Assembly (NCBI RefSeq): GCF_006345805.1
Contig: NC_043015.1
Span: 23,436,001-23,500,000, forward strand
Source of the DNA: Octopus sinensis
Taxonomy: Eukaryota
Length of the DNA stretch: 64,000 nucleotides
Reading direction: 5' to 3'
Made by a program: the position numbers and the translations under genes. The notes under the pieces were generated by a model. That model was not told where the DNA came from, ran no database searches, and saw nothing but the letters and a program-made list of their open reading frames with translations. How positions within the stretch are numbered: the stretch's first letter is position 1; every line of letters begins with the position of its first letter. Shown in pieces: positions 31,250-55,864 of this stretch.

Positions 31250-33822
31250 ATGTGTTTTTCTTCTTTCAAATTTGCTACCATTTCTTGCCAAGTGTATTCC
31301 CGACTCCTAGGGCAAAGAAACTCATAGTATACATTGGTAGGCCATTAAACTAAACTCACTAATTCGTTCGTTTTTTTTAGAAATAAAGTTAAATTAGAAT
31401 ACATGGGTAGTAATAGTTCTCACATCGACAATGCTCTTCCCAATACCTGTGATGTACCAGTTAAGAAAATCTTTTGCACTTCTTGCAGGGATGGTAAGCC
31501 AGGGATCATTCTCATATAATTTTCGGTTCCCTTATTGATCATTCCTAGTGCTCCTACGATCACTGGTATTGTAACCGCCTTGAGATGCCACATTTTCTCA
31601 ATTTCAATGAGTAGGTCTTTATATTTTCTGAGCTTGTCAAACTCTTTCGCTGAGATATTATGATCACAGGGGATGCTCATGTCGATCAATAGGCAAACTT
31701 CATTGTTTTGGTCTTTCACAACAATATCCGGTTTATTGGCTTTGATGGTTCGGTCTGTATGTACTGGAAAGTCCCACAGAATCGTTACATTTTCTCCTTC
31801 AGTTACAGCTTCAGGGTGGTGATTATACAACATGTCGGCAGTTTTGATAGTGTAATGCCGACTTATTAGCCAGAGTAAATATTGGCCAACTCTGTCATGT
31901 CTTAATTTATACTCCACTGGTGCTAAGACTTTACATCCAGAAATGAGGTGGTCCACTGTTTCAATCATGTCGTTGCAGAATCGGCATTTTGGGTCTGCTC
32001 CATTTTTCATCACATAGGCCTGGTAGTTCCGGGTTAATAGGCTTTGATCTTGAGCAGCCAGGATGAAACCTTCGCTCTCTGCTTTTAGCCCTGAGCTCCG
32101 TAGCCACTGATGGGTTTGCTTCTGGTCAACATCAGCTTGTTTGCTACGGGCCACATATTTGCCGTGCAGAGGTTTCTCCTCCCACCTATCAGCCAATTGC
32201 TCGTGCGCTTTTTTCTTTGCCATTATTTTCACCTTCTTTGCAACAATAGTTGCCGTATTTCCCTCGGGTTGTTCAGTTTGGGTATCCTGCACGAGATCAT
32301 TAGCAAATGTTTTGCTTTCCTTTATGATAGAATGAAGCTTCTTTCGTCTCTCGTGATTTTCCACGAGCTTTAGCATCCAGTCATTCGTTATTTCAAGATA
32401 TTTGGCCAGTCCAATTGTGGTTGTTTTGTAAGCTAGTTCAAATTGGATCAGGCCTCGACCTCCTTGGACTCTGAGTAGGTAAAGGCGATATACGACTGCA
32501 TTGGGTGGTGCATCCTATTACAAACTCCAGCTTGCGTATTTTCCTATCTATTTTCTTTACTTCACTCATATTCCGTTCAATACATTGTAGCTATAAGTAA
32601 CAACTGGAACTGCTAAGGAATTTATAGCTAACACCTTGTTACGTGCATTTAGTTCAGATTTCAGACTGCTCGAACAATCTCCTATAACATTCCCTCCTCC
32701 TGATCTTCGCTTCATGCTTCATGCTGAATACCAGAGCCTTCATTTATCCCTAAATATTTGTAGGTTTGTTCTTGCTCAAGCTCTCTTATGACTGTGTCAA
32801 CATCTAACACGACTGAATTTGTGGTCTTCACTTTCCCTTTCTGGAAAGTGACCTTGGCACACTTCTCAAGCCCAAACACTATCCCGTTGTCATCACTGAA
32901 TGCTTTCACAGTGCGCAATAGACCTTCAAGATTATTATCGTCTTTACCATAGAGTTTTAAGTCATCCGTATAAAATAGATGGCTTTTTTTTTATTGACAA
33001 TTTTATACCCATACCCTGTTCTGTTTAATTCACTTGTAAGGGGTATTAGGGCTATGCAGAATATTAGAGGTGGAAGTGAGTCACCTTGAAAAATTCCACA
33101 GTTGATCTTTATATTCTCTGAGGCAAGTATCCATTAAAGTGGTATAATTGGAGATTCGTATTCCACAACGACATATTATGCTTCAGGAAGCTTGAAATCT
33201 CTGGGGAAATTTTGAAGATGTCCAGCGATTTCAAGATATATATGAATGCGGTATACTGTCGAAGGCCTTTTTATAGTCAATTCAGCGGAGCTGAGATTTC
33301 TGCGCTTGTGTGACAGTTCTCAAGGATCATACGACTAATTAGCATTGATCTTTGCATCCGTATGAGCCTCGGCGCACCCTTTTTTCAATGGGGAAAATAT
33401 CGTTCTTCTCCATGAATGCATATGTTTTCTCCGCCAGGATAGATGTTAGGATTTTATACGTGGTGGATAAACAGGTTATAGGCTGATAGTTTTTTGGGTG
33501 TTTGGTTTCGTTATTCTTTGGGAGTAGGTAAGTAATACCACTTGCTAATCATTCAGGTGTTTTCACTTTGGGTCGCTCATAATTCCATTGAGCAGCTGAA
33601 TTAGCTTACCGTGTGCACATGGGAGCGATGAGAGCCAGAAATTCGGCACCCTATTTTTACCGGGGGATTTCCAATTATGGGCCTTCGTGAGTGCCTTTCT
33701 TAGGTCTGCTATTGTGATGTCTTCCCATGCTTGTTGTTGTAAATTTTGGTAGGATCCTTCAGTTTGTATAATCCAGTCTGCATTTATGTTGTACATCTCG
33801 TTACTCCAAATCCTTTTCCAAA
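31250..33822 (-). mobile_element. 3' half of an R4/Dong-like element (RT plus REL endonuclease), disrupted
   Basis: NWKSPG..V.NFW, GIFQGDSL, HLFYTDDLKLY, YKYLG. The 318-aa ORF has CRFC..HLISGC, RHD and KPDIV..D. 3'UTR runs into (CAT/TAT)n. Confidence 0.9.
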
Positions 33823-36800
33823 TCGCTTTCTCCCGTTCGGCCACGCCCGCGGGTCCGTTAGCGGCAGGCCTGCGCCTGTCGCCCGTTCCTCCGCCGCGCT
33901 ACCGTGCCCGAAATCGAAAGAACGAACCCAAGCCCGCGGTGCGGCCCACGGACGCGTGGACGTAGCCGCCACCGATGCCGGAAGGCGTTCACGAGATACT
34001 CACGCGGTCGATACGGAGACGCGGTCCGTCCCGTAAAATCCCGAAGGATGACAAACTGCGGCTAGCACGAGGTGGCGGCGGGAGGCCTGCGCCGGTCGCC
34101 CGATGCTCCGCCGCCCAGACGTGACCGAAATCGAAAGCACGAACCCAAGCTCGCGTCGTTGCCCACGTACGCGTGGACGCAGCCGCCAGCGATGCCGATG
34201 TTGCGAGGTACGGGCGTTCGATACGGCGACGCGGGCCGTCTCGTAAATTCCCGAAAGATGGACAAACTGCGGCCGCCTTCGCCCGCGCCTCCGCGGCGCT
34301 ACCGCGAGGCTGAAATTCGGCTTGAGCGAAGCTTGCGCTCTCGCCCACGTACACGTGGACGTAGGCGCGATCGATGCCGTCAGTCGCCGGGAGTGCGTGG
34401 CGACATGCACCGGGTAAAAACAGCGACGTGGTCCGACCCGTGAGCTAAGGAGGTGCTCGGACCGTAAGCAAACGGATCGACCCCGGCTGGATAGTCACGC
34501 CTCTAGGTGACCGTCGCACCCCAAGGGGGTCAAGACTATATTGAGGGCTTGCAGTCGGCAGGTTTCATGCCTCGGGGACCGTTCGGCAGGATGCCAGAGA
34601 CGTCAGCCTGCGACGCCGTCAGCCCGGCGGGTGGCCGCCGCCTTCGCGCCGCCTCGCTTTCTCCCGTTCGTCCGCGAGCCGCGGGGCCGTTACCGGCAGA
34701 CCCGCGCCGGTCGCCCGTTCCTCCGCCGCGCTACCGTGCCCGAAACCGAAAGAACGAACCCACGCTCGCGGTACGGCCCACGGACGCGTGGACGTAGCCG
34801 CCACCGATGTCGGAAGGGCGTTTACGAGATGCACGCCGTCGATACGGCGACGCGATCCGTCCCGTAAAAACCCGAAAGATGGCAAACTGCGGCTAGCACG
34901 GTCGCCCGTTGCTCCGCCGCCCTAACGTGCCCGAAATCGAAAGAACGAACTTGAGCGTGCGGTCTCGCCCACGTACGCGTGGACGTAGCCGCGACCGATG
35001 TCGCGAGGTGCGGGCGTTCGATGCGGCGACGCGGTCCGTCCCGTAAATTCCCGAAAGATGACAAACTGCGGCCGGTGCAGGCAACGGCCGATAGCGGCGG
35101 CCATGCGCCCGCCTTCTACCGCCTTCGTCCGCAGCTCCGCCGCGCGACCGCGAGGTTCAAGCGGGGGGACTCGAGCGAAACCTGCGCTCTCGCCCACGTA
35201 CACGTGGACGTAGGCGCGATCGATGCCGTCAGTCGCCGGGAATGCGTGGCGATATGCACCGGGCAAAAACAGCGACGTGGTCCGACCCGTGAGTTACGGA
35301 GGTGCTCGGACCGTAAGCAAACGGATCGGCCCCGGCTGGATAGTCACGCCTCTAGGTGACCGTCGCACCCCAAGGGGGTCAAGACTATATTGAGGGCTTG
35401 CAGTCGGCAGGTTTCATGCCTCGGGGACCGTTCGGCAGGATGTTTTAGACGTCAGCCTACGACGCCGTCTACCCGGCGGGCCGCCGCCGCCTTCGCGCCG
35501 CCGCCTTCGCGCCGCCGCCTTCGCGCCGCCTCGCTTTCTCCCGTTCCTCCACGCCCCGCGGGGCCGTTAGCGGCAGGCCTGCGCCTGTCGCCCGTTGCTC
35601 CGCCGCGCTACCGTGCCCGAAATCGAAAGAACGAACCCAAGCCCGCGGTGCGGCCCACGGACGCGTGGACGTAGCCGCCAGCGATGCCGGAAGGCGTTCA
35701 CCAGATGCACGCGCTCGATACGGCGACGCGGTCCGTCCCGTAAAATCCCGAAAGATGACAAACTGCGGCTAGCGCGATGTAGCGGCAGGCCTGCGCAAGG
35801 CCTGCGCCGGTCGCCCGCGTCTCCGCCGCCGAACCGTGCGTGGAATCGAAAGCACGAAACTAAGCGGGCGGTGTCGGCCACGTACGCGTGGACCTAGCCG
35901 CGACCGATGTTGCGAGGTACACGGGCGTTCGATACGGCGACGTGGTCCGTCTCGTAAATTCCCGAAAGATGACAAACTGCGGCCGGAGCCGGTAGCGGCG
36001 TGCCTTCGTCCGCGCCTCCGCCGCGCTACCGCGAGGCCGAAGCGGAGATTGAGCGAAGCTGGCGCTCTCGCCCACGTACACGTGGACGTAGGCGCGATCG
36101 ATGCCGTCAGTCGCCGGGAGTGCGTGGCGATATGCACCGGGTAAAAACAGCGACGTGGTCCGACCCGTGAGTTAAGGAGGTGCTCGGACCGTAAGCAAAC
36201 GGATCGGCCCCGGCTGGATAGTCACGCCTCTAGGTGACCGTCGCACCCCAAGGGGGTCAAGACTATATTGGGGGCTTGCAGTCGGCAGGTTTCATGTCTC
36301 GGGGACCGTTCGGCAGGACGCCAGAGACGTCAGCCTGCGACGCCGTCAGCCCGGCGGGTGGCCGCCGCCTCGCTTTCTCCCGTTCGTCCGCGAGCCGCGG
36401 GGCCGTTAGCGGCAGGCCCGCGCCGGTCGCCCGTTCCTCCGCCGCGTTACCGTGCCCGAAACCGAAAGAACGAACCCACGCTCGCGGTTCGGCCCACGGA
36501 CGCGTGGACGTAGCCGCCACCGATGTTGGAAGGGCGTTCACGAGATGCACGCCGTCGATACGGCGACGCGGTCCGTCCCGTAAAAACCCGAAAGATGGCA
36601 AACTGCGGCTAGCACGGTCGCCCGTTGCTCCGCCGCCCTAGCGTGCCCGAAATCGAAAGAACGAACTTGAGCGTGCGGTCTCGCCCACATACGCGTGGAC
36701 GTAGCCGCGACCGATGCCGGAAGGGCGTTCACGAGATGCACGCCGTCGATACGGCGACGTGGTGCGTCCCGTGAAAACACGAAAGATGGCAAACTGCGGC

Positions 36801-38471
36801 TAGCACGGTCGCCCGTTGCTCCGCCGCCCAGACGTGCCCGAAATCCAAAGAGCGAACCTAAGCTCGCGGTGCGACCCCAGTAAGCGTGGACGTAGCCGCG
36901 ACCGACGTCGCGACGTGCGGGCGTTCGACGCGATCCGTCCCGTAAATTCCCGAAAGATGACAAAGTGCGGCCGGTGCAGGCAACGGCCGATTGCGGCCGG
37001 CATGCGCCCGCCTTCTACCGCCTTCGCCCGCGCATCCGCCGCGCTACAGAGAGGCTCGACTGGGACTCGAGCGAAGCTCGCGCTCTCGCCCGCGTACACG
37101 TGGACGTAGGCGCGATCGATGCCGTCAGTCGCCGGGAGTGCGTGGCGATATGCACCGGGTAAAGACAGCGACGTCGTCCGACCCGTGAGTTAAGGAGGTG
37201 CTCGGACCGTAAGCAAACGGATCGGCCCCGGCTGGATAGTCACGCCTCTAGGTGACCGTCGCACCCCAAGGGGGTCAAGACTATATTGAGGGCTTGCAGT
37301 CGGCAGGTTTCATGCCTCGGGGACCGTTCGGCAGGATGCCAGAGACGTCAGCCTGCGACGCCGTCAGCCCGGCGGGTGACCGCCGCCTTCGCGCCGCCTC
37401 GCTTTCTCCCGTTCGTCCGCGAGCCGCGGGGCCGTTAGCGGCAGGCCCGCGCCGGTCGCCCGTTCCTCCCGCGCTACCGTGCCCGAACCGAAAGAACGAA
37501 CCCCACCTCGCGGTACGGCCACGGACGCGTGGACGTAGCCGCGACCAATGCTGGAAGGCGTTCACGAGATGCACGCCGTCGATACGGCGACGCGGTCCGT
37601 CCCGTAAAAACCCGAAAGATGGCAAACTGCGGCTAGCACGGTCGCCCGTTGCTCCGCCGCCCAGACGTGCCCGAAATTCGAAAGAACGAACCTAAGCTCG
37701 CGGTGCGACCCCCGTACGCGTGGACGTAGCCGCCACCGATTCCGGAAGGCGTTCACGAGATGCACGCCGTCGATACGGCGACGCGGTCCGTCCCGTAAAA
37801 ACCCGAAAGATGGCAAACTGCGGCTAGCACGGTCGCCCGTTGCTCCGCCGCCCAGACGTGCCCGAAATTCGAAAGAACGAACCTAAGCTCGCGGTGCGAC
37901 CCCCGTTCGCGTGGACGTAGCCCCCACCGGTGCCGAAAGGCGTTCACGAGATACCGGCGCTCGATAGGAGTACGTGGTCCGTCCCGTAAAATCCCGAAAG
38001 ATGACAAACTGCGGCTAGCACGAGGTAGCGGCGGAAGGCGTGCGCCGGTCGCCCGCGTCTCCGCCGCCGCCCTACCGTGCGTGAAATCGAAAGCACGAAC
38101 TCGAGCGTGCGGTCTCGCCCGCGTACGCGTGGACGTAGCCGCGACCGATGTCGCGACGTGCGGGCGTTCGATGCGGCGACGCGGTCCGTCCCGTAAATTC
38201 CCCGAAAGATGACAAAGTGAGGCCGGTGCAGGCAACGGCCGATTGCGGCGGGCATTCGCCCGCTTTCTACCGCCTTCGCCCGCAGCTCCGCCGCGCTACC
38301 GCGAGGCTCGATTGGGACTCGAGCGAAACTCGCGCTCTCGCCCACGTGCACGTGGACGTAGGCGCGATCGATGCCGTGAGCAAGGAGGTGCTCGGACCGT
38401 AAGCAAACGGAGCGGCCCCGGCTGGATAGTCACGCCTCTAGGTGACCGTCGCACCCCAAGGGGGTCCAGAC
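33823..38471 (+). repeat. rDNA intergenic spacer: ~190-bp subrepeats grouped in 0.85-1.2-kb units each ending in a promoter-like block
   Basis: Recurrent ACGCGTGGACGTAGCCGC and GGTCCGTCCCGTAAA.CCCGAAAGATG.CAAACTGCGGC. GC-rich, directly upstream of ETS/18S. Confidence 0.85.
34447..37292 (+). promoter_or_regulatory. Four duplicated (spacer) RNA polymerase I promoter-like blocks
   Basis: ~100-bp block GGAGGTGCTCGGACCGTAAGCAAACGG...CCCCAAGGGGGTCAAGACTATATTG(A/G)GGG, with the TATATTG.GGG motif at 34537, 35386, 36264 and 37282. Confidence 0.65.
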
Positions 38472-38483
38472 TGATATGTAGGG
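38382..38483 (+). promoter_or_regulatory. Putative pre-rRNA gene promoter / transcription start
   Basis: Fifth and last copy of the block, ending GACTGATATGTAGGG, after which the sequence departs from the subrepeats into unique ETS. Confidence 0.6.
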
Positions 38484-40085
38484 TTGTGGTTGATCGGCAT
38501 AGGTTAGCGTCTCGGAAGGATGTCCACGTAGCTCCTTTTCTGATGACGGTTAGCTCCCCGTTTGCCGGTGCAAGATCGATTCTACACGGCCGGCGCGTCC
38601 TCGAATTTCCGCCGCCGAACCGCCCGCCTTTCAGACGCTGCGTTCGCCCGCCCGTTGACGCCCGCGTTTGCCCGCCTTCGCCCGCCTTCGCCCGTCTTCG
38701 CCCGCCTTCGCCCGCCTTTTGAAGCTCGCCTTCGTCCGCCTTCGCCCGCCTCTGGACGTCCGCTTCTTCACGCCCGCCTATTAGACGCTGCGTTCTACCC
38801 GCATCTTTCGACGCACGCCTTCGCCCGCCTTTCAGACGCCGCTGCGTTCGCCCGACCCTTTCGACGCACGCGTTTGCCTGCCCGCCCGCCCGCCCGCCTT
38901 CCTTCCTTCGCTCGCCCGCCGGCAACCGCCGAACGACATAGGTGGACCGCCTTCCTTCCTTCGCTCGCCCGGCGGCAACGGCCGAACGACATAGGTGGAC
39001 CGCCTGGAAGGGATGTTGTCGGCGCTCCTTTCTGCCAACGGTTGGCTCCCTTATTGCCGGTGCAAGGTCGACTCTACACGGCTGGTGCGTCCTCGAATGT
39101 CTGCCGCCGCCGCCGCCACACCGCCCGCCTTTTAGACGCGCTCCCTCGACGCCCGCGTCTGCCCGCCTCTTCACGCTCGCCGGTTCGTCCTCCCGCAATC
39201 GAATCGCTTCTCGTTACCGCGCTTTCTTTTTTTCTTTTCTTCCTTCCGACCCCCGGCCTCGTCTTCGCCGCCGAGGACCCGGTCAGGTTACGCCGCTGAC
39301 CTCGTGTCGCGTCGCCGTCGGCGCGGCGGACGGGCTAGCCGTCGCTTCCCGTTCCGCCACAGGCGACGCGGCGTCTCCGAAAGAGTGCGGTGCCGTGTCC
39401 GTCCCTTCTTCCCTGGACGGAACCGTGGCTTCAACTCCGGGTTTCGCTGCCTCGTAGCGTTTCTGCAGCTTTTTCTTTCCCTTCCCGGCATCACCCCGCC
39501 TTGGCGCGCGTCGTTTTCGTGCGACCACCGTCATGGCACTCGCTCGTTGACCGCAGTCCGGACGCAGTTCGTCGCAGCCGTTTCGAAAGGATCGGGTGGA
39601 GGAAGCGACGACGACGACGACCACCGACGCGTAGGGCGCCGGGCGAGTCTAGAAGCTGCAGCGGGCCCGCGCCAATCGCCGCTGCCCCTCTCGTCTGCCG
39701 ACCTAGTCGCTGGCCTTCTTCGCCTTCTCCTCTCTTCCCTCTTCCGCCCGGAACCGGCCCCCACTTCGAATCGACCCGCACCGGAGCCCGTCCGCAGCGG
39801 CCCCGGTGTGCGGCAGTCGGATCGCAAACCGTTTCTTGTATCGCGAACGCTTCTTCGCGCGTCGACCCGTGTTGTTTTCGCCTCTTCTCCTCCTCTTCCT
39901 CCTCCGGGACGACGAGGAGGAGCTGGCGCGCGCGTATACGAACGGCGGCCGAACTCGCGAGCGCCCTCGCGCCTCTCTGTTTTCGGCCCCTCCGATTCCT
40001 TTCGTTCTCGTTTCCGATCGGCGGCTGCTTCCCGAGCTTCCGCCGCCGCCGCGCGCTTCGTTCTCTCGAAACGTAACGTCGGTGA
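38484..40085 (+). other. 5' external transcribed spacer (~1.6 kb)
   Basis: GC-rich sequence between the last promoter block and the 18S start, with internal short repeats. Confidence 0.65.
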
Positions 40086-41755
40086 TACCTGGTTGATCCT
40101 GCCAGTAGTCATATGCTTGTCTCAAAGCTTAAGCCATGCAAGTGTAAGTTCATGCCGTAAACGAATGGTGAAACCGCGAATGGCTCAGGAACCGGACCTA
40201 ATCCTCGGGACCGTATTCTTCCACCGCGAGGAGAGTGGATAACTGTGGCAATTCTAGAGCTAATACATGCAACCGAAGCCGCGATCGCAGGTCGCACCCG
40301 GGCGTCGGGCTCGAAAACGGCGTTCGGCAGCCGTCGCTTTTTTCGCGGCGTCGCCGGCGTCCGCTCGGCCGGATCTGGGGCGGCGCATCCGCGCCCGTCC
40401 CTCCCGGTCGCGACGATACGGTCGGCCTTCCGCATTGGTCGCGGCGCAAATATTAGACTGAGACCGACGCGTACGGGCCGTCGCAGCAGCCGCCGCGCCT
40501 TCCGCGCGCGGGTCTTAGGCGTGCGGCGGCTTCACGCCCTTCGATTTTGGTGACTCTGGATAACTGTCAGTACGATCGCACGGGCTAGTATCGCACTAGC
40601 CTTCGCGCGACGGGTCCCCCGCGAGTCCGCCCTATCAACTGTCGACGGCCCGGTCAGTGCCGACCGTGGTGGCAACGGGTAACGGGGAATCAGGGTTCGA
40701 TTCCGGAGAGGGAGCATGCGAAACGGCTACCACATCCAAGGAAGGCAGCAGGCGCGCAAATTACCCACTCCCGGCACGGGGAGGTAGTGACGAAAAATAA
40801 CGACGCGGGACTCTGTCGAGGCCCCGCGATCGGAATGAGTACACTTCAAATCCGTTAACGAGGATCGACCGGAGGGCAAGTCTGGTGCCAGCAGCCGCGG
40901 TAATTCCAGCTCCCGTAGCGTATATTAAAATTGTTGCGTTTGAAAAGCTCGTAGTCGGAATTCGGGTCTCGAAAACGTGCCCCAGCACGTTCGGGGCGAC
41001 GGCGCCGTCGCAGGCGCGCTTCTGGCGCGTCCGCTTCGGTCGTCCGTTCGCACTCCCGGCCCTATTCGCCGGTGCGTGCGCGGTCGGGCCGCGGAGCTCT
41101 GCTCGCGTCGCCGCCGCGACTCGGCACCGCCGTTCAGCGATCGTCTTCGCCCGCGTCGCGTCGCGTCCGGTTCATGCCTGCGCCTTCAACGGCGCGGGTC
41201 GGTCAGGCGTGCGCGCGGGAGCCACGAGGCGGGTGCGCTATTGGGCGGCGTCGTCGCCGTTCGCGTTCTAGCGGTAGTAGCGCGTCCACCTCCCGGTCGT
41301 TTCGGCCCGCACGGTTCCTCCGAGGGTGCTCTTCGCCGAGTGTCCGAGGCGGCCGGTACGTTCACTGTGAAAAAATTAGAGTGCTCAGAGCGAGCCCCGC
41401 CGGCTTGCATACGAAAAGCATGGAATGATGGAAAATGGCCTCGTCCGCGCGTCATCCGTCGGTCTCCGTTCACGACGAGGCAATGATCGATGGGAGCGAT
41501 CGGGGCCACTCGTATTGCGACGTTAGAGGTGAAATTCTTGGATCGTCGCAAGACGCACTGCAGCGACGGCGTGTGGCAAGCACGTTTTCCTCGATCAAGA
41601 GCGAAAGTCGGAGGTTCGAAGACGATCAGATACCGTCGTAGTTCCGACCGTAAACGATGCCGACTGGCGCTCCGCCGGCGTTCGCTTCGATGACCCGGCG
41701 GGGAGCCTGCGCGGGAAACCATAGTCGGTTCCGGGGGGAGTATGGTTGCAAAACA

Positions 41756-41801
<46 letters not shown>

Positions 41802-42462
41802 GCGGCTTAATTTGACTCAACACGGGAAAACTCACCCGGTCCGGACACCGGTAGGATTGACAGATCGATAGCTCTTTCTCGATTCGGTGGGTGGTGGTGC
41901 ATGGCCGTTCTTAGTTGGTGGAGCGATCCGTCTGGTTGATTCCGATAACGAACGAGACTCCGGCCTGCTAACTAGCGCGTCGATTAGTGCTTTTCCGTCG
42001 TCGGTAGCTCCGCGCGCGGCCCGGGCTTCCCGTTGCCGCCGCTCTCCTTCGCGTCCGGCGCTGCGGCCGCGTCCGGCTGCCGTCCCCCGTTCGCGGGGGT
42101 TCGGTCGCGGCGTGGTTGCGGCGTCGGTTGCGGAGCGGCGGCGGTGACCCGGTCGGCTCGGCCCGCGCGAGCCCGGCGGCGGCACGCCGTCGCGTCCGGG
42201 CCAGTCGGTTGGCGAACGCAGCGCTTCTTAGAGGGACGGGCGGCAGAAAGCCGCACGAGGCGGAGCGATAACAGGTCTGTGATGCCCTTAGATGTCCGGG
42301 GCCGCACGCGCGCTACACTGGAGGTATCAGCGGGCGCATCTCCCCCGGCCCGAGAGGGTCGGGAAACCTCTGAACCACCTCCCGTGATAGGGATCGGGGC
42401 CTGGAACCAACCCCGTGAACGTGGAATTCCCGGTAAGCGCGGGTCATCAGCCCGCGTCGATC

Positions 42463-42505
<43 letters not shown>

Positions 42506-42639
42506 CGAACGGTCCGGTGAGGTCCTCGGATCTGGCCGACGAGTCCGCTTACGCGCGGCGGCGTTCCGCGCCGTCGTCGGCGCGTTCTCTGATGGCCCGG
42601 AGAAGACGACCGAACCCGATCGCTTAGAGGAAGTAAAAC

Positions 42640-42682
<43 letters not shown>
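40086..42682 (+). rRNA. 18S rRNA (2597 nt, greatly expanded variable regions)
   Basis: Starts TACCTGGTTGATCCTGCCAGTAGTC, contains GTGCCAGCAGCCGCGGTAA and TTGTACACACCGCCCGTC, ends GGTGAACCTGCGGAAGGATCATTA. Confidence 0.98.
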
Positions 42683-43452
42683 GCGCCGTGTTCTCGAAGT
42701 AGAGAAGAAGAAAATAGACATTCGCGATCCGCCCGATTTCTTTTATTTTTTTACAAGTCGCGGCCGGGACCCTCGCCCGAGTACCACCGAATGCTCTTGA
42801 TTCGGCCCTCTAACAGCGCAGCAGTAGCGGTCGCGTGACAGCCCGCCGTCACACGCCGCGACACGCCGCGACTCTCTGCTGCCGACCGCGCAACCACCCT
42901 GCCGGCGTCGGCCCGCCCTCATGGCGCTCGGACGACGGGGCTTGCACGCTTTGCGAGCTCCATGACCATTTCTCTCTTCCTTCCTGCCTCGCCGACCGCG
43001 CGATTCGGCCGACCGCCGCCCGGCGCGCAGTCTCTTCGCGAGACTTGCCGAGCCGAAAGTCGCGGCCGGGCCCCCTCGCCCGAGTACCACCGAATGCTCT
43101 TGATTCGGCCCTCTAACAGCGCAGCAGTAGCCGTCGCGGCAGCCCGCCGACACGCCGCGACTCTCTGCTGCCGACCGCGCAGCCACCCTGCCGGCGTCGG
43201 CCCGCCCTCATGGCGCTCGGACGACGGGGCTTGCACGCTTTGCGAGCTCCATGACCATTTCTCTCTTCCTTCCTACCTCGCCGTTGGCGTCGGCAGTGGC
43301 GCGCTTCGTTCCGCTGTCGACGCCTTCGAATCTCATTTTGTTTTTTCCGTCGCGCGGCGCCGGCCTCCTATCGGGGGCCGCTGCCGCTTTCCTTTTTTTT
43401 TTTTTTTTTTTTCTTTCCGTACGTCTAGCGCGTAGTAGTAGCAAATATACCG
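42683..43452 (+). other. ITS1 with internal ~230-bp direct repeat
   Basis: Between 18S and 5.8S; copies at 42755-42994 and 43057-43283. Confidence 0.85.
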
Positions 43453-43614
43453 AAACCCTGGACGGGGGATCACTCGGCTCGTCCGTCGATGAAGAGCGCG
43501 GCTATCCGCGTGAACTGATGCGAATTGCAGGACTCAGTGAACATCGACACCTCGAACGCACATTGCGGCCCCGGGATCCTATCGTCCCGGGGCCCCGTCC
43601 GGTCGAGAGGCGGT
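43453..43614 (+). rRNA. 5.8S rRNA
   Basis: GGATCACTCGGCTCG.CCGTCGATGAAGA...GAATTGCAGGAC...GAACATCGA...CGAACGCACATTGCGGCC. Ends approximate. Confidence 0.95.
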
Positions 43615-44082
43615 CAAGACACGAAAACGCAGTCCGCCGAAGCCTTTGGCTGCGGCGGGGAGTCGGGAGTCGCAGGAAAGGGCGGCGCTCGCCGCCAGGC
43701 CCGCACTATATCTCGCGCGCGAGCCGCCGCCGCTCGATCGTCCGTCTCCCGTAATGCCAGACCGTCATCGTTGCGAAGCGCTGTTGCGGAGGAGGGAGCC
43801 CGCCGAAGTGCGGAAGCAGAGGAGTAAGGGATCAGTAGCAGGAACGACAACGACGACACGGCGAGGCCCCTCGTCGCGTCCGCGTCTTCCTCTGCGTTCC
43901 TCTCCGAGCGACCGCCGCCCTCCGTCGCTGCCGCCGCCGCCGTCTCGTCTTTCGGCGTTCGCTCTGTGGGAATATCTCTTTCGTGCGAGCGTTCGTGCCG
44001 ATCGACAGCGGTGGTGTGCGCGCCGGTAGTAGCAGGCAGCAGCCGTCTCTTTTGCAGCATCTCCTTTTTTTTTTATTCACGC

Positions 44083-45433
44083 TGCCCTCGACTCGGACGC
44101 GATTACCCGCCGAACTTAAGCATATCGCTAAGCGGAGGAAAAGAAACCAACCGGGATTCCCTAAGTAACGGCGAGTGAACCGGGAGAAGCCCAACGCCGA
44201 ATCTCGTCGGCCGCGCCGGTCGTCGAGAGCTGTGGCGCAAGGGTCGTACACGGTCGATCGTTTCGCCCGGCTAGGTTCGGAGTCCCCTCGATCGGGGCTG
44301 CCCAGAGCGGGTGCCAGGCCCATTCGGAGCCGGCGGCGATCGGCGGTGTTCATCGGCCCGAGAGTCGGGTTGCTTGGGAACACAGCCCAAAGCGGGTGGT
44401 AAGCTCCATCCAAGGCTAAATACGGGGACGAGTCCGATAGCCGACAAGTACCGCGAGGGAAAGTTGAAAAGAACTTTGGAGAGAGAGTTCAAGAGACCGT
44501 GAAACCGCCCAGGGGTAAACGGGTAGGACCGCTCACCGCGATCGCGAGGGGACTCAGTCCGCTGCTTCACGCCGAGGCGCCGTCGTCGTCGACGAACGCG
44601 CCGGTGGCGGCCGCTCGTTCCGCGGGCGGTCGTCTGCCGCCTCGTCGGCGTTCGATTCCCGGGGCGCCGGCATCGGACGCACTTCCCCTCCGATCCGTCG
44701 TCGCGACCCGTTTCCCGTCGGGCCGGTAGGCGCGCGGCGTCCGCAGGTCGCAGACGAGAGCCCCGTCGCCGCCGCGCAAGCGGCGGTCGGTGGGATCCAC
44801 GCGCTCTTCTCGACCGGGCCCGTCGCTCCACGTAAAGCGCAGGCACGGCTAACCGACGGAGACGGGCAAACGCACCTCGCCCTTAGCACGAACGACGCAG
44901 CGAGTCGCGCGCGGCCTCTTTGCGGAGGTCGCGAGCGACGCGGCCGCCCGCGCGCCGCGACTGCGCGGAAACCCTCGCAAGGGGGGCGACGCGAATTGCG
45001 GTCGCGGGACACCTTCCGCTCGAAAAGCCGCCCGCTGCCGCCGGTCAGCGACGAGCATCGGCAACCTACCCGACCCGTCTTGAAACACGGACCGAGGAGT
45101 CCCAGTCGACTGCGAATCGTTGGAGCCTTTCACTTCGCGAACTCCGACGGCACAGCGAAAGCGAGAACGTGACACGACGTCGCCGTCTCGCTTCGGCGGG
45201 ACGGCACTTCGAAGCATCGTTCCCGGGTCGGGTCCGCGCGTTCGCCGCGACGTTCGCGTCCTCCGGCGTTCCCGCTCCGACTCAGGTGTAGCAGGCGGCC
45301 GGGGACCCGAAAGATGGCGATCCACGCCCGGTCGGGACGAAGCCAGAGGAAACTCTGGTGGAAGTCCGAAGCGCCTCTGACGTGCAAATCGATCGTCGGA
45401 ACCGGGTGTAGGGGCGAAAGACCAATCGAGCCG

Positions 45434-45476
<43 letters not shown>

Positions 45477-46912
45477 CGCCAGCGGGAGAACGACACGCAA
45501 TTCCGTCCGGTAAAGCGAACGACTGGAGGCCCCGGGGACGTTGACGGCCTCGATCTACTCTCGAACTCGGAACGGGCGAAACGGGCCGCTCCTCTCTCGA
45601 TCGGAGGCGGCCGCCGTTATGCGACGACGAATGCACGGTGCCAAGTGGGCCACTTTTGGGAAGCAGAACTGGTGATGTGGGATGAACCGAACGTCCGGCT
45701 AAGGTGCCCTACGCTTCGCCCATTAGATCCCCGAAAGGGTGTCGGTCGATATAGACAGCAGGACGGTGGCCATGGAAGTCGGAATCCGCTCAGGATTGTG
45801 TAACAACTTACCTGCCGAATCGACCGGCCCCGAAAATGGATGGCGCTGGAGCGAGCGACCGATGCCGGACCGGCCGGGCGACAGGTTGCGCGATCGCCGG
45901 CGAGGCGACTTTCCGATGCCCGGTCGAGTAGGAGGGCGCCGCGGCGTGCATGGAAGCCGCGGGCGCGAGCCCGGGTGAAGCCGACCGCGGGTGCAGATCT
46001 CGGTGGTAGTAGCAAATATTCGAACGAGACCTTCGAAGACCGAAGTGGAGAAGGGTTCCGTGCCAACGGCGGTCGAGCACGGGTCAGTCGGTCCTAAGAA
46101 GCGGGCGAAAGCTTCCACGAAAGGCGCCGGATCCGTCGTTTAGAAAGAAGAAGAACTCCCGTAGTTCGATATCGAGTTACGCGGCCGGCCTCGCATCGAA
46201 AGGGAATCGGGTTAATATTCCCGAACCCGAACTCGGAGAGTGCCCGTCCGTCGGCGGGAACGCGGCGTGCTCTTCCTAGCAGCGCGTCCGTCGTCGAAGC
46301 CGGCGGCCGGGCGAAGCAGCGGCAACTCAAGCGAGCCCGGAGACGTTGCCGGGAGCCCCGGGAAGAGTTCTCTCTTCTTCGTAAAGGACCGCGTCCGTGG
46401 AATCGGCTCGTCCGGAGATACGGATATGGTACCTGTAGAGCGCGGCGTCCGGTGCGCTCTCGGCGGCCCTGGAATATCCGGGTCCGTAACGAATCGCAGC
46501 TCTCGAGTCGGTCCGTACCCACCATCCGCAGCAGGTCTCCAAGGTGTACAGCCTCTCGTCGATAGCGCCAATGTAGGTAAGGGAAGTCGGCAAAATGGAT
46601 CCGTACCTTCGGAAGAAGGATTGGCTCCGAGGACCGGGTCGGTCGGGCCGTGTGTGTCGCCTCGCTCCCGCGCGGCCGCGTCGCCGTTCGCTCGGCGTCG
46701 CGCCGCCGGGCGCCGGAACACGTCTTCACGCGAAGCGGCGGACCGGTACGGGGCTGTAGCGTTGGCGTCGGACTCGGCATCCCGGTGCGCCCCATTTTTC
46801 CGGCGGTCGTCGCAGCGTCGGCGGGCAACCCGCTACGCGCCGGTGCGCGGTCGCGCCTTCGGTCAACGCGGGTCGGCTTCTACGCGCGCGTTCTTTCCTT
46901 CCGCTGCGCTGC
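44083..46912 (+). rRNA. 28S rRNA, 5' ~2.8 kb only (truncated in the expansion segment after the GGGAAGTCGGCAA core, D8 region)
   Basis: ACCCGCCGAACTTAAGCATAT, ACCCGTCTTGAAACACGGACC, CGAAGTTTCCCTCAGGATAGC, GTAAGGGAAGTCGGCAAAATGGATCCG, then an abrupt switch to AT-rich retroelement sequence. Confidence 0.95.
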
Positions 46913-48331
46913 GTTTTGAACTTCTTCCATGGGAGGCGGGTCTGTAACGGTTACTTTCTCCTTCCGTATTTCTCTGTAGAATTTTTTGGCATTGGATGTG
47001 AACAGCTTATTTTGCTTGTAAAACTTGTTTCTCTTCTCAAATCTTCGTATTCTTTGAGCTTTTGCTTGGACTTTTTGTTTCAGCGTTTCTTTTATTGATA
47101 TCACTTCTTCTCTTGGTGAGGATCCAAATTTTCTCTTCATCTTTCTTCCTGTTCTGGATCTTACATCATTTCCACATATTAGTTCATTTAATATTGATAT
47201 TTCCCCTCTCATAAATTCAATCTCTTTTTCAATTTTACTTCTCCAGGTTTGATTTCTTCCCAGGTTTGGTTTTCTTTGTTTTTTGGGGGGCATACAGCTG
47301 GTTTCAATTGCCCTAGCAGAAGCGTAAATAATTTCATTTAACTCAGTAAAATTAGGTTTTAATTCTTGTATTATTTCATTTGTTACATAGTTGCCAATTT
47401 GGATTTGTGTTTTATTTTGGTTTGTATTTGAGAGTTTATGAAGTGGTTCTCTATCATTCATACTTGCATGTCTTACAACTTCAAGCGTATTCAGGATTTT
47501 CTGCCTCATTTCTGCCATAGACTCTCTGTGTTCTTCAGCAAATGCGAGATCTTCAGTTACTGTTGTTTTATCATTTTCCTGGCTATCTTTAACAGGTTCA
47601 ATAGAATTTCTTGTATCTTCAGGCCTTTGCGTACTTTGGTCAGATGGCAGTCTTTCAATTAAGCCTCGTGGCGGGCTATTCTGTTTATTTGATTCTTCAT
47701 TTCCTTTGTGTCTTATATTTATGTCATTTTCCGTTGCGTGCTTGATCGCGCTTATTTCATTGTCTGTGAGTCTGTTATTTCTAAGGATATCCCTCCTCGC
47801 ATTTGCCAATTTGTTCTCGTCCAAATAGGGTCTACTGTCTTGATTCCGTGTTCTCCATATACTGTAAGAGTTTGCGGTGTGTCTCTCTTGAGAAGGCCTA
47901 CCTAATGCATAGTAATAAGCGTATATTACTATTTATACTCTTCTCGGGTCCATTTGTTCCGCTTACATTTTTCTTTCTGTGTTGGTTGTGGTGGTGAACT
48001 TGAAGGGCTCGAGTTGGGGAATTTCCCATTCAAGTGACCATCCATGTCTGTATTCGGAGAAGAGTTTGTGCCAGTTGATGACTTTTCGGTCCCAGGATGG
48101 CTCTTCCCTGGGGGACGCGCTTCCAGATTAACCATAGTACAAGCGATTTGGTATACTGATTTAGTTTTCCTTTTAGTTTCCAAAAACATGTTGGTGCTAC
48201 GATAATGTTATCATTTTTGAGCTCTGAGTGTCTCGCGGGGAGAAGGCCATCATTGCCGTTACAATTATAATCGTACCATTATAGCAGCCGTAGCCGGCCT
48301 GTGGTCACTCCTTGTAGTCATGGCAACAGTG
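46913..48331 (-). mobile_element. 5' half of the same R4/Dong-like element (N-terminal Myb-like region and pre-RT region)
   Basis: RNKWTREEYK, NKLANARRDILRNNRL, LKQKVQAKAQRIRRFEKR..QNKLF...KKFYR, ending TDPPPMEEVQN at the junction. 5' end next to (TTA)n; the boundary may extend to ~48580. Confidence 0.85.
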
Positions 48332-51437: not shown

Positions 51438-53405
51438 GGCGTAGGTGTGGTTGTATGGTAAGAAGCTTGCTTCCCAGAACCCTACTACCTACTGCGCATG
51501 TTTTGTTTTCAATGTGCGCAAGCGATATTGTCAGCGTTGTGCGTATCACTGAAAGAAGTGACCAAGCTGTGTAAAGCTGGTGAAAAAAGAAGCTCAAATA
51601 TGAGGTAAGACTTTGGGGGGGGGGTCCAGTGGGGGTTTGTTATTTGCGGTAATTATTTTTGCACAAGCAAGAGGTCCTCACTGGATTCTAAACTCTGGTC
51701 TGCCTGCAGTTGAGCAAAAGTGGTTCACTTTTTTTCTCACATAATTGTGAGAATTGTTGCTTGGGGCGTATCGTGCCTCCTAAAAATTTGCTCACTTTTT
51801 GTGAATTTTATAAATAATTGTGAGAATTGCTCTTTTGGGGGAGTGTCTTTGCCTCCGAAGATTGAACGATTTGTATACCAGTTTTTGTGGAAGTTGTGTT
51901 CCAGTTGTGGCATTCCAGATTTGGCCTTCGCCGGAAGAATATTTGCTGCGTTTTTGAACTATTGACTTTCTTTCTTCTAAACTTGAAATACCTTGAAGAG
52001 AGGACGGTGGAATTGAGGACTTACTCCAAGTCGCTCGACAGCATCCCCTATTTGAAAAACTGTAATTGAAAAGGGGTTGAAAGAGTATCTGCCAACTATT
52101 AAATTCATCTCCAGTAGGGTCAAATACGCAACGGTATGGTCGCTATTTGACACCCCTAAAGAGGCTCGCAAATATGCGAGCCAGCCCTTAGAGGCAAAGA
52201 CATCTCGTTTCTTCCCCCGTATTGTGGGAAGAGGTTGACAATAGCTTGGGTTTTGGGTTGCCACCCGGGATAAAATCCGAGTGGATAGAGGAGACTATCT
52301 GTCGGGGTCTGGGTTGCAGCTGAGCCAAATTCATTAATGTGAAAGTGATTGGGAATGGGTCAAAAGTAGTTTTGACCCTGTGGAGCCAATCGGCCAATCT
52401 GGTTTTTCCAGATTTTTTTTTAATGGCCAGTGATTCTTGAGGGTCATTCCCCACCAGGTGTCATCGATGCCTGGAGCTTGGCCATATAAATAAAAACGGT
52501 CACGGAAGAGAAGCACCCTCCCTCAGGCGAGAAGAAAAAAGAGGATGAGGAAGAGAAACGGGACATCGCCGGCAGTCGGTGACATAGTACCAGAATATCC
52601 GGGAATCTCGTCAGTGGGGGTTGTGCCACTGACAGTGGAAGAGATACTGTTGGTGGGAATTGCGCCGCCGACAGTAGAAGTGACTACCTCGATCCCGGAA
52701 GAAGACGAATTATTGGTCTTCTTCTACAGAGGCGGAGAGTTTGAGAATATTTTGGAAAAGCACCATAAGGTAGTACCTTTAGCCTGTACACGGGATCCTG
52801 AATGGCCTCCGCAGATAGCTGTGGAGGTCATAACGTCGCCCGTGTTGCGTACGCTGCAGGTACTCAACGCGGAATATCACTTGTGGGCGTGCGATGCCGA
52901 CATGGCACCCACTTTGTGCTCGAAGGAGGCGTGGCTAATGGCGGAGTATGAGCCACAAGCGGTGTTGTGGAGGAATATGGATAAGAGGTTGAAAAGCCTC
53001 AGTGTTAATGAAAGTTCCTAGTCTGGAAAAAAATGTGTCTTAGTGCCTTATTTTGTTATTGAATTGTGAACAATGTAAGAGGTTTGTTGCCTCATTAGTA
53101 ACATAAGATATCAATGTTCTCGGGGAAAAAACGGTCGGTGGGCGTCGCTTTTCCCCCCATTAATCATCATTTTCATTTTTCATTTCATATTACATTTTGT
53201 CTGTGTCCAGCCAGCAGATTTCTATCTCTATGTAAGGCTTTTATGGCCAATATAATAAAATAAAGAAGCTTGCTTCCAAACAACATGGTTCTGGGTTCAG
53301 TCTCACTGCGTGGAACCGTCAGCAAGTGTCTTCCATTTTTGTCGCCGCCCAATCAGACGCTTGTGAGGTTGAAATTGGTAGACGGAAACTGAAAGAAGAC
53401 CGTCC
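51438..53405 (+). mobile_element. tRNA-derived SINE interrupted by an insertion
   Basis: Head GGCGTAGGTGTGGTTGTATGGTAAGAAGCTTGCTTCC at 51438-51474 resumes at 53263 with ...CATGGTTCTGGGTTCAGTC...GGTAGACGGAAACTGAAAGAAG. Confidence 0.75.
51475..53262 (+). mobile_element. ORF1-only non-LTR element (HAL1-like), 1.79 kb, with 15-bp TSD; ORF frameshifted
   Basis: TSD AAGAAGCTTGCTTCC at 51460-51474 and 53263-53277; A-rich tail AATAAAATA. Manual translation gives EERTVELRTY, KYATV...EARKYA, PYCGKR and VILEG..PTRCHRCLELGHINKN, homologous to the ORF at 945-2305. Stop at 53021. Confidence 0.8.
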
Positions 53406-55864
53406 TATATATATATATATAACAAAGTGAAGTTGTAAGGTACCGCACGAGTGGAAATATATATGAAAGAAGGTTTGAAATACAATTTTAAAGATGTTTA
53501 TTCATTCGAGCAAAGCTATTCTTCAGAAGCACGAGACGGAGGAAAGTCCAAGAGAAAAGGAAAACGGAGCAACAAAAAAAATCCCCAACGATTTACATGT
53601 GGTTACATTTTGAAATGACCTGGAGGGAATGGGTGAAGAAAAAGTTATTTCTAAGACAGGAGAGCGTAAGAGGAGGTTTGTGTGTGTATGTGTGGGTATG
53701 TGCGTGCGCGCGAGTCTGCGTGTGCTCGTGTGTAATAGCATGTGTGCGTTTGTGTATGTGTTCGAGTGTGTGTACGTGAGTGTATGTGCGTGTGTGTGTG
53801 CGGACGTGTGCGTGCGTGTGTGTATATCCGTATGTGTATGCCCATGTATGTGTAATTGTGTGCGTGTATGTATGAGTGTTGTCTGTGGGGGAGGTATGTG
53901 TGCGCGCTTGTGCGTGTGCGTGTATGTATATGTGCGTACGTGTGCGTGTATATTCGTGTGTATATGTGAGTGCGTGCGCGTGTGTATTTTGTGTGTAGTG
54001 TGTGCATGCGACTGAGTGTGTGCCCGTGTGTGTTATATTGATTGGTCTAATTTACACCGAATAGGAATGCCAGAGAAACATTTTATGAAAGGAATGTGTT
54101 ATAAGTCCAAATAGCAATTTCTGGGGACTCGGCGATTCATAATAATGTTAATAGACGTAGAACATTACTATAGGTGGCCGTATGGATTTTCAGGGCCCAA
54201 TATAATCAAGTTATTTTTAAAAGCTAAGAACGAAGGTAGAGTCAGAGTTTGCGTACATGATACATATGTGCTGATGTGTTGGGGATGGGGCAGGTTACGA
54301 GATAGAGGAAAACTTTAGTTTAATTGTGCCTCATCAGCCTGCCGTCGATTCTGAGGCCTCCTCGTACCAGTAGAACTTGAATTTAGAATAATAGTCATGA
54401 AAACGTTTGACCAGTATGACTTACGCACTTCAAAACACCATACCAACCACAGGAAATAAATATAGAGAAAACAGTGGCTGCAGAATGACGTACGCCAAAC
54501 AAAGAAATAAAATTTATTGAAATTGCCCCCAGCTTCAAAAACAAACAAAAAAACATAACTAGTTCTAAATGTTTCTGTAGATTTAAAGGTACTCTAAAAT
54601 AAAAAAAAAAACTAAACCATAAACAGTTTAAAACGAAGATTTCAAATTATTCAATAGGTTTCGCATAAATTGTAACAAGTCACAGAGTTAAATGCTTCAG
54701 CCAGAAGGCGTTTTTCAATATAGGAGCTATATTTCATTTAATCCCAGTGTTAAATTTAAAAAGAATATTATTATTATTTAGAAATTCATTAGAAATGGAT
54801 ACACACATACACATACACACGCACGTACTCACATATTCACACATACGCATACATATGCACGCACACGCACACAAAAAAAAACACACACACTTCTATTTAT
54901 ACACAGCACGCACACGTGGAACGAATGTAGGTAAAGAAATTTTCCTAGTAGACAATTAAAGAATGGAAATGAAAGTTTCTGCTGAAGATACTGTGGAAGA
55001 GAGAAGTTAACGAAAATGTCTATTAAAGGTTTCTGCCTTAAGGCTGAGAATCCTTATCGCGACATTAGTATTTGTAACTGAAGGAAGACACTGCAGTATA
55101 ATCTTATTGAACATAGTGATAAAGATATGGAATAAAATCCATTGATACGTTGATGATTAGAATCACATATTCTACAAGTGCAGCGTTGATAGAAACTAGA
55201 ATTTTCACAAACATAGAAATTGATTTTAAGACCACGAACAAACATGGATTCATGCATTTGCCGCCACTTATTCAGGGAGTTAGTAGTTCTATTTATGACT
55301 GGTGTGATTGTAGATTTATCTCTGACCGTTTGAATGATGAAGTGTATTCCTGAAGTCGTTTCTTTTTCAAGGGAGCGAATGCCTAATACGGAAATCTCTT
55401 ATGTAGGATTAAGTATTCTGTCTTTAACATAGTTGAGGAAGAGTTAAAAGAAATGGGGTACTATTTCTAGCTGGAAAAGAAACAACGTAGAGGCATCGAT
55501 TTTGCTTACAAGATAACTTGTGCTGGTTGTGGATGATGAGCTGGTTGCTTTTTTGATGCAAACCCCAATGAATCAATCATAAGACTAGGATTCGACTTCT
55601 TTCTTCTATATCAAGTCACCTAAGAATTTAAACCTGATGATATGTTGACACATATCTAATATTTCTGAAGTCAGTAAGGCCATTTCCTGTCAAATGATAT
55701 CTTAAACGATATATCAGAAACATGAGGCATCATTTTATTCGATGTTGTGGAATACCTATTCAATCTTCAAATATTAAGTGCGTACATGTATCAATAGTTA
55801 TATATGTACCTGTAGATACGCAAACACTCATAAACGTGTGGGAAGAAAAATGCGAGAAAGTGAA

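Follow-up and report, generated by a model that had tools for sequence, protein, structure and literature searches.

A multi-copy family of ORF1-only elements at one fixed base of an octopus SINE head, with an L1/Tx1-type LINE as its likely mobiliser in trans

Anatomy of the window copy

The window, the whole 64-kb stretch of Octopus sinensis DNA analysed here, holds two exact copies of AAGAAGCTTGCTTCC, at 51460-51474 and 53263-53277, which enclose 1,788 bp; the word has no further plus-strand occurrence in the 64 kb. All parts of the insertion lie on the plus strand. The first copy is preceded by the first 22 nt of the tRNA-type head of a host SINE (51438-51459), with a word at 51448-51458 that we take to be A-box-like from the pol III consensus. 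After the second copy the SINE resumes and runs to a TA run (53278-53417), with a B-box-like word at 53294-53304. The initial annotation had described an exact 15-bp repeat and an insertion inside a SINE head, and both are borne out. The same head stands directly upstream in 17 of the 20 long family copies that were fetched and read by eye; it is absent in two and undisplayed in one.

The upstream 15-mer (51460-51474) is a target-site duplication whose outer half is possibly element-borne, judging from an allele comparison in partner copies. It is followed by a 5' UTR remnant (51475-51982), which opens at 51475-51491 with an additional, degenerate target word that is fixed at the 5' end of the window's sub-lineage. 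This extra word is shared with L031, L032, L033, L034, and L043, is missing in other family copies, and is likely the relic of an earlier landing site. The ORF1 remnant (51983-52984) carries frameshifts and stops and includes the knuckle motif CHRCLELGH at 52459-52485, which preserves the first three ligands of a CCHC zinc knuckle; the broken frame and motif are as first reported. A 3' UTR (52985-53262) leads to the fixed family terminus and contains a predicted hairpin with a 4-bp stem and a 5-nt loop (53236-53248), common to the autonomous partner described below. The downstream target 15-mer (53263-53277) follows directly.

In an alignment with 20 fetched copies, the window copy lacks 198 majority columns at 51982/3 and 179 at 52495/6. 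The first deletion, which bounds the 5' UTR remnant, removed the ATG and about 20 codons, and the second removed the fourth zinc ligand, the last cysteine of the knuckle. The copy differs from the family majority by 131 changes in 1,540 well-supported columns, and 8 of the 131 are A-to-G, so that the excess expected of hyper-editing is absent. A tblastn search of the whole window with the partner ORF2 gave zero matches, in agreement with the reported absence of a reverse transcriptase/endonuclease ORF. The window copy is an old, dead, doubly deleted member of its family, and the earlier description of it as complete is therefore wrong: the deletions amount to about 198 and 179 bp, and an intact unit measures about 2.17 kb between the repeats. 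Other details of that description change as well. The intact leader is about 0.6-0.7 kb rather than 0.4-0.5 kb; the family stop codon maps to 52982-52984, which gives a 3' UTR of about 280 nt instead of about 240 nt; and the supposed A-rich end is a fixed terminus, ...AATGAAATA in the family and AATAAAATA in the window copy, with no poly(A). The exactness of the AAGAAGCTTGCTTCC repeat is not by itself proof of a fresh duplication, since this 15-mer matches the target SINE consensus, and its upstream copy may be partly element-borne.

Elsewhere in the window, a GC-rich (60-67%) orphan piece of rDNA occupies about 33000-46900. It comprises an 18S gene at 40086-42682 that is about 770 nt longer than the model, a 5.8S gene, and a 28S gene that breaks off at model position 1888; spacer repeats of 191 bp precede them. 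The piece sits between LINE-like minus-strand frames (46883-47932, and 31423-32514 with a weak zf-RVT signal) and TTA runs, as if within one element. Given its high GC content and long 18S, it could also come from another organism or be an assembly chimera.

The ORF1-only family and its protein

A DNA search of the same genome with the window element returned 2,209 candidates. Scoring covered 40 of them, and many copies share the two ends of the element. The other copies are mostly 73-87% identical to it, and their alignments break against the window query at the same two points. To follow the protein, we searched the genome with the N-terminal 212 residues of ORF1 from a natural copy; this gave 11,740 candidates, 150 of which were scored and 60 of those loci read. 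None of the 60 loci carries an ORF2 in cis. Five of them have no readable 3' junction, and there too no ORF2 match lies downstream. Most ORF1-only units measure 2.0-2.6 kb, fall into several subfamilies, and often retain open frames of about 400-430 aa. In every subfamily ORF1 leads directly into a short 3' UTR that closes with the fixed terminus. Continuation of the other copies into an ORF2, the outcome that was to count against the element, is thus seen in none of the loci read.

All 28 pairs among eight natural ORF1s give dN/dS values of 0.11-0.32 over the first 210-213 codons, and the value between subfamilies is about 0.2; ORF1 is under purifying selection. The ORF1-only proteins form one clade with support 100/99, subject to a long-branch warning, and core identity down to 64-73%; no ORF2-bearing member was seen within this clade. 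These data make it very unlikely that the copies are separately made products of an autonomous LINE with the same ORF1, each deleted or prematurely ended on its own. Internal deletions of at least 40 bp in 12 of 21 aligned copies speak for such an origin, as does the fact that only 60 loci were read. Against it stand the common layout and size of the subfamilies, a single clade of this depth, and selection acting between subfamilies.

The family ORF1 protein combines a pair of predicted RRM domains with a single CCHC knuckle, a linker that is basic and of low complexity, and a conserved C-terminal portion. The sole Pfam signal is a weak zf-CCHC match in family copy P0001, whose E-value of 0.014 does not reach the Pfam cut-off; Pfam detected no RRM in the ORF1 sequence. 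AlphaFold modeling of the N-terminal 212 residues with an 83-row alignment gave a confident model, with a pLDDT of 90. When the AlphaFold model was used in Foldseek, the best matches were multi-RRM proteins, including tandem-RRM proteins, with E-values of 3e-4 to 1e-3, at a whole-chain TM score of only about 0.3. The Atlas neighbours of ORF1 carry zf-CCHC, RRM_1, and RBD_ZCCHC3. Taken as a model-based prediction, ORF1 has the Type I layout (RRM plus CCHC), which the accessible text of PMC5203782 describes as consistent with Tx1.

We also considered whether the element could be a processed pseudogene of a host RRM/CCHC gene, captured by LINE machinery, with the two gaps of the window copy representing spliced introns. 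ZCCHC3-like clusters among the Atlas neighbours (scores 0.89-0.90) are compatible with this reading. The deleted stretches, however, start with TT or AC/AA and finish with GG or TC/CC rather than GT..AG, and one of the gaps holds the start codon, so splicing was rejected as their source. ORF1 aligns instead with LINE ORF1s (196 aa, E 1e-21), and the protein search brought up no close host gene, its only two matches being octopus gene models that resemble ORF1. The match to a spliced host gene that had been named as a refuting case is therefore replaced by a match to LINE proteins, and a processed pseudogene is largely refuted, its probability being close to nil.

Two further frames resemble this protein or its layout. 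In an O. vulgaris SAM-domain protein model (P0003), the first ~26 residues match the C-terminal part of ORF1 with 60% identity over 15% of the query, which reflects either exonisation or a gene-model error. Within the window, 948-2369 on the minus strand is a different ORF1-only candidate, a 474-codon open frame followed by a TTGTAAA-rich UTR and then no ORF2, with its 3' end cut. This frame is 29% identical to the family ORF1 and 34% to the partner ORF1, and its relatives lie in tandem at a spacing of about 1.75 kb.

Target site, partner LINE and independent insertions

We collected 50 distinct family copies, including that of the window, and could read the 3' end in 48. The target 15-mer, allowing up to four edits, directly follows 44 of these 48 ends, with the rest of the SINE also present in 42; the other four ends have no target word. 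With only 15 empty SINE heads in 194 kb of flank, chance adjacency of element and head is negligible. In a younger ORF1-only subfamily 30 of 30 3' ends lie at the target, and 30 of 30 fetched 3' ends of the partner LINE lie at the same SINE base. All three shares exceed the 20% of flanks in one target type above which PMC4494074, as far as its text is available, speaks of target specificity. The question of whether other copies use the same SINE position is answered in the affirmative, and this sequence-specific targeting, common to the family and its partner, is the larger finding. The older SINE variant, counted by exact 27-nt patterns, has 107 filled and 5,628 empty sites, and a broader exact 22-nt junction pattern has at least 1,051 matches in the genome.

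We call the SINE head tRNA-type because of its A- and B-box-like words; neither Rfam nor ARAGORN called it a tRNA, and the SINE was matched to no named SINE. Octopus tRNA-derived SINEs have been described by Ohshima and Okada (1994; cited in the accessible part of PMC4758252). No sequence tail common to the host SINE and the partner LINE was found, the best blastn-short match between one full SINE copy and partner copy L195 having an E-value of 0.63, a measure of sequence likeness only. At least two SINE variants (e.g., L188 282-690) differ within the target word, AAGAAG..TTCC versus AAGTAG..TTAC or TAAC. The first mostly holds older elements and the second younger ones. Duplicated SINE heads stand right at the insertion base in L186, L150, and L048, which suggests that the site receives RNA started in a SINE, or SINE copies as such. 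Further families with a distinct 3' UTR, the same hairpin, and the same SINE base occur in L160, L163, L169, and L178. The L163 unit measures only 1.1 kb; L178 has an ORF1 within 1.5 kb of its end that is nearer to that of the partner (39%), a possible second ORF1-only origin.

The partner is an autonomous member of the L1 group with an APE endonuclease, a reverse transcriptase, and a C-terminal zinc motif. A full-length copy is about 5.4 kb. Copy L195 has an open ORF1 (488 aa) and ORF2 (~1,130 aa) with an ORF1-only element behind it, and its sister L115 gives the Pfam matches Exo_endo_phos, RVT_1, and zf-RVT. The nearest solved structure to the partner ORF2 is human L1 ORF2p (E 3e-65). As no named Tx1 reference occurs among the 120 listed partner homologues, we infer the label Tx1 from domain type and targeting. 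Older relatives of the partner (~80% identical) have 3' ends in the older of the SINE variants, the one in which the window's family also sits (L159, L165, L168, L179). Mixed arrays of LINE and ORF1-only elements are found in L115, L183, and L195; in L115, a single SINE contains an ORF1-only element, a two-ORF LINE, and another ORF1-only element, with the target word at each junction. HeT-A likewise forms mixed head-to-tail arrays with RT-bearing partners; HeT-A goes to chromosome ends, whereas the octopus elements go to a dispersed repeat. A related two-ORF LINE in L102 (4170-9500, oriented; G000:C8:73012500-73022000) shares ~65% ORF2 DNA identity with the SINE-targeting partner. It starts directly after a (TATC)n run, with a short 3' fragment alongside that is flanked by the same microsatellite, and may represent a sister lineage targeting a microsatellite.

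The initial annotation had proposed a search for an autonomous L1/Tx1 partner sharing the 3' UTR. Such a partner exists, but the shared part is confined to the last ~35 nt. Since this 3' end is all that the partner and the ORF1-only elements have in common and their ORF1s are only 25-30% identical, no direct autonomous parent of the family was found among the loci examined. The shared end contains the hairpin, whose outer and inner pairs covary over 26 ends (G-C/U-A and C-G/U-A). Across these ends 92% of cells are paired, 17 cells are changed on both sides, and 0 of 500 shuffles score equally high, a count that is not a probability because the hairpin was picked by eye from the same sequences, has four pairs, and comes from related sequences. 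In other LINEs, hairpins of this kind are a sign of stringent 3' recognition, according to the accessible text of PMC3472496.

Whether insertions at this base are independent bears on a further possibility, namely that one ORF1 element entered a SINE once and that the SINE-plus-insert was then amplified through the SINE tail by the partner LINE of the SINE. Six 5'-truncated family copies (L051, L053, L063, L068, L073, L095), with inserts of ~45 bp to 1.1 kb, adjoin the SINE head at six different breakpoints, which argues for independent insertions. L051 and L063 have identical private changes in both repeat copies, and the same holds in related families for L236 and two truncated copies, L190 and L285. 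Elements are also more alike than the SINEs around them: pairwise identity is 88.7% for the element and 77.5% for the flanks among 20 family copies, and 98.5% and 89.6% among 18 partner copies. Counting on the other side, element and flank identity show a weak correlation in the old family (rho 0.16, from non-independent pairs). The many breakpoints and duplicated private alleles, the 9-11 points of additional divergence in the flanks, and the presence of unrelated families, including an autonomous LINE, at the same base all make amplification of a composite unit quite unlikely as the general explanation.

In favour of the composite unit are the SINE sequence on the 3' side of the copies and those copies that lack an upstream head. 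In 14 of 19 readable long stretches, a sample selected for the most part for an unclear 5' end and from which L087 was left out, no SINE head lies within 7-9.7 kb upstream, as would be the case for 5'-truncated composites; two of four truncated young copies are without a head in the 1.5 kb seen. No convincing outer duplication surrounds the 11 headless units tested, and L081 alone shares an 8-nt word between its outer flanks. Later deletion or insertion likely accounts for the headless copies, and some may reflect occasional transposition of element plus SINE tail, so that the composite unit may explain a minority of copies. For the family as a whole, shared ends, independent duplications, and the 0 of 60 loci with an ORF2 uphold the proposal of a protein-coding, non-autonomous family that moves as a unit.

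The 5' junctions provide additional insight. Among 18 full-length partner copies, eight have T at downstream target position 13; the upstream repeat has A in all eight, and seven of them have one extra base at the join. The truncated copy L190 has the target's own alleles. This mismatch in full-length copies, together with the match in L190, indicates that the outer half of the upstream repeat is element-borne in full-length partner copies. The ORF1-only subfamilies are mixed, one following the target allele and another often not. Younger subfamilies in the newer SINE variant retain TTGCTTC, the word of the older variant, behind the junction, and in L186 an entire second SINE head lies between target and element. 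From sequence comparison, these patterns would fit an RNA that starts in the SINE head of the donor and anneals to the new target. Four contig runs cover a young copy in pieces, a pattern that is uninformative on transcription and its start.

Proposed mobilisation in trans and known systems

Our preferred reading, which we hold to be highly probable, is a multi-copy ORF1-only family inserted at one fixed base of the SINE head and likely copied in trans by the L1/Tx1-type LINE that uses the same base. The shared site, the shared hairpin, and the mixed arrays point to the ORF2 of this partner as the machinery, and the steps that follow are drawn from such sequence features. The partner ORF2 protein would bind the 3' hairpin of the element RNA, nick the SINE opposite GGT^AAG, and prime reverse transcription there in a target-primed manner. 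A second nick up to 15-16 nt downstream would give rise to the duplication. The ORF1 protein of the element would package its own RNA in cis, which may explain why ORF1 is kept under selection. If the RNA begins with some bases derived from the target, these could let the finished cDNA anneal to the target. With the target site regenerated at each junction, later elements would stack into arrays.

More tentatively, the family may belong to an ancient guild of protein-coding hyperparasites for which the SINE family is a renewable habitat. Autonomous as well as ORF1-only elements might be transcribed from inside the SINE head, with 5' target bases guiding the joining and being refreshed in each round, and might have tracked successive SINE subfamilies, leaving stacked 5' relics of older targets. 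In this picture, the differences between SINE variants inside the target word might be traces of escape or co-evolution. We regard this wider picture as possible, though doubtful.

The element had originally been called HAL1-like. It operates in the manner of HAL1, yet it does not belong to the mammalian HAL1 family. Unlike mammalian HAL1, its ORF1 is of the RRM plus CCHC type rather than Transposase_22, and the octopus family has a fixed terminus with a hairpin, a single insertion site, and no close parent LINE found. L1 elements have a poly(A) tail and insert in a dispersed manner. The resemblance to mammalian HAL1 lies in being non-autonomous, encoding ORF1p only, originating in the L1 group, and keeping a 3' end for the ORF2 of a partner (PMC5753468, PMC5786205). 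HAL1, HeT-A, and Ag-Sponge are all described in the available text as ORF1-coding non-autonomous LINEs (PMC5786205, PMC5753468); HeT-A (Jockey clade) and Ag-Sponge (CR1 clade) are like the octopus family in this respect but belong to other clades (PMC5786205).

The site specificity is reminiscent of target-specific Tx1 families, which include Tx1L in Tx1D, Keno (U2), Mutsu (5S), Dewa (tRNA-Leu spacer), Kibi/Koshi, and Tx1-Mar with SINEU, and which form tandem insertions around a ~16 bp TSD (PMC4494074, PMC3706591). Like the octopus system, these are APE-type L1-group LINEs that use one position of a multicopy sequence, even of transposons, and have non-autonomous passengers. The targets described in the accessible parts of these two sources are RNA genes, microsatellites, satellites, DNA transposons, and LTR elements, none of them a SINE head, and the crocodilian passenger is a non-coding SINE, whereas the octopus passenger is a protein-coding lineage with several subfamilies (PMC4494074, PMC3706591). 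R2 and the R2/R1 SIDEs offer a third comparison: they too are site-specific, include non-autonomous members, and may rely on target-derived transcription, the SIDEs keeping only the ends that their partner needs; the SIDEs differ in being non-coding and in using RLE or R1 machinery and an rDNA target, and their 5' end is made by a ribozyme (PMC3414825, in the text available).

In the literature as accessible, we found no ORF1-only L1/Tx1 family in molluscs and no LINE aimed at a SINE head; Repbase, Dfam, or the supplements of PMC13282606 may hold these families. That 2026 O. vulgaris repeat annotation lists 13 recently active L1-Tx1 families, and the terms nested, target, and ORF1 are absent from its available text.

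Collectively, the octopus family is likely a HAL1-like, SINE-head-targeted non-autonomous lineage with an identified likely partner. On the head of a very abundant SINE, it unites parasitism by ORF1-only elements with the site specificity of Tx1 families, both of them known strategies. At no fewer than 1,051 junctions, the system is a visible part of the octopus genome, and its elements are easily mis-annotated as genes, as the two octopus protein models matching ORF1 illustrate. An intact partner, together with a minimal, hairpin-bearing cis signal of ~35 nt, makes it a test case for how a LINE chooses its RNA and DNA, as well as for why a non-autonomous element keeps ORF1 and for whether second-strand joining is guided by 5' target homology.
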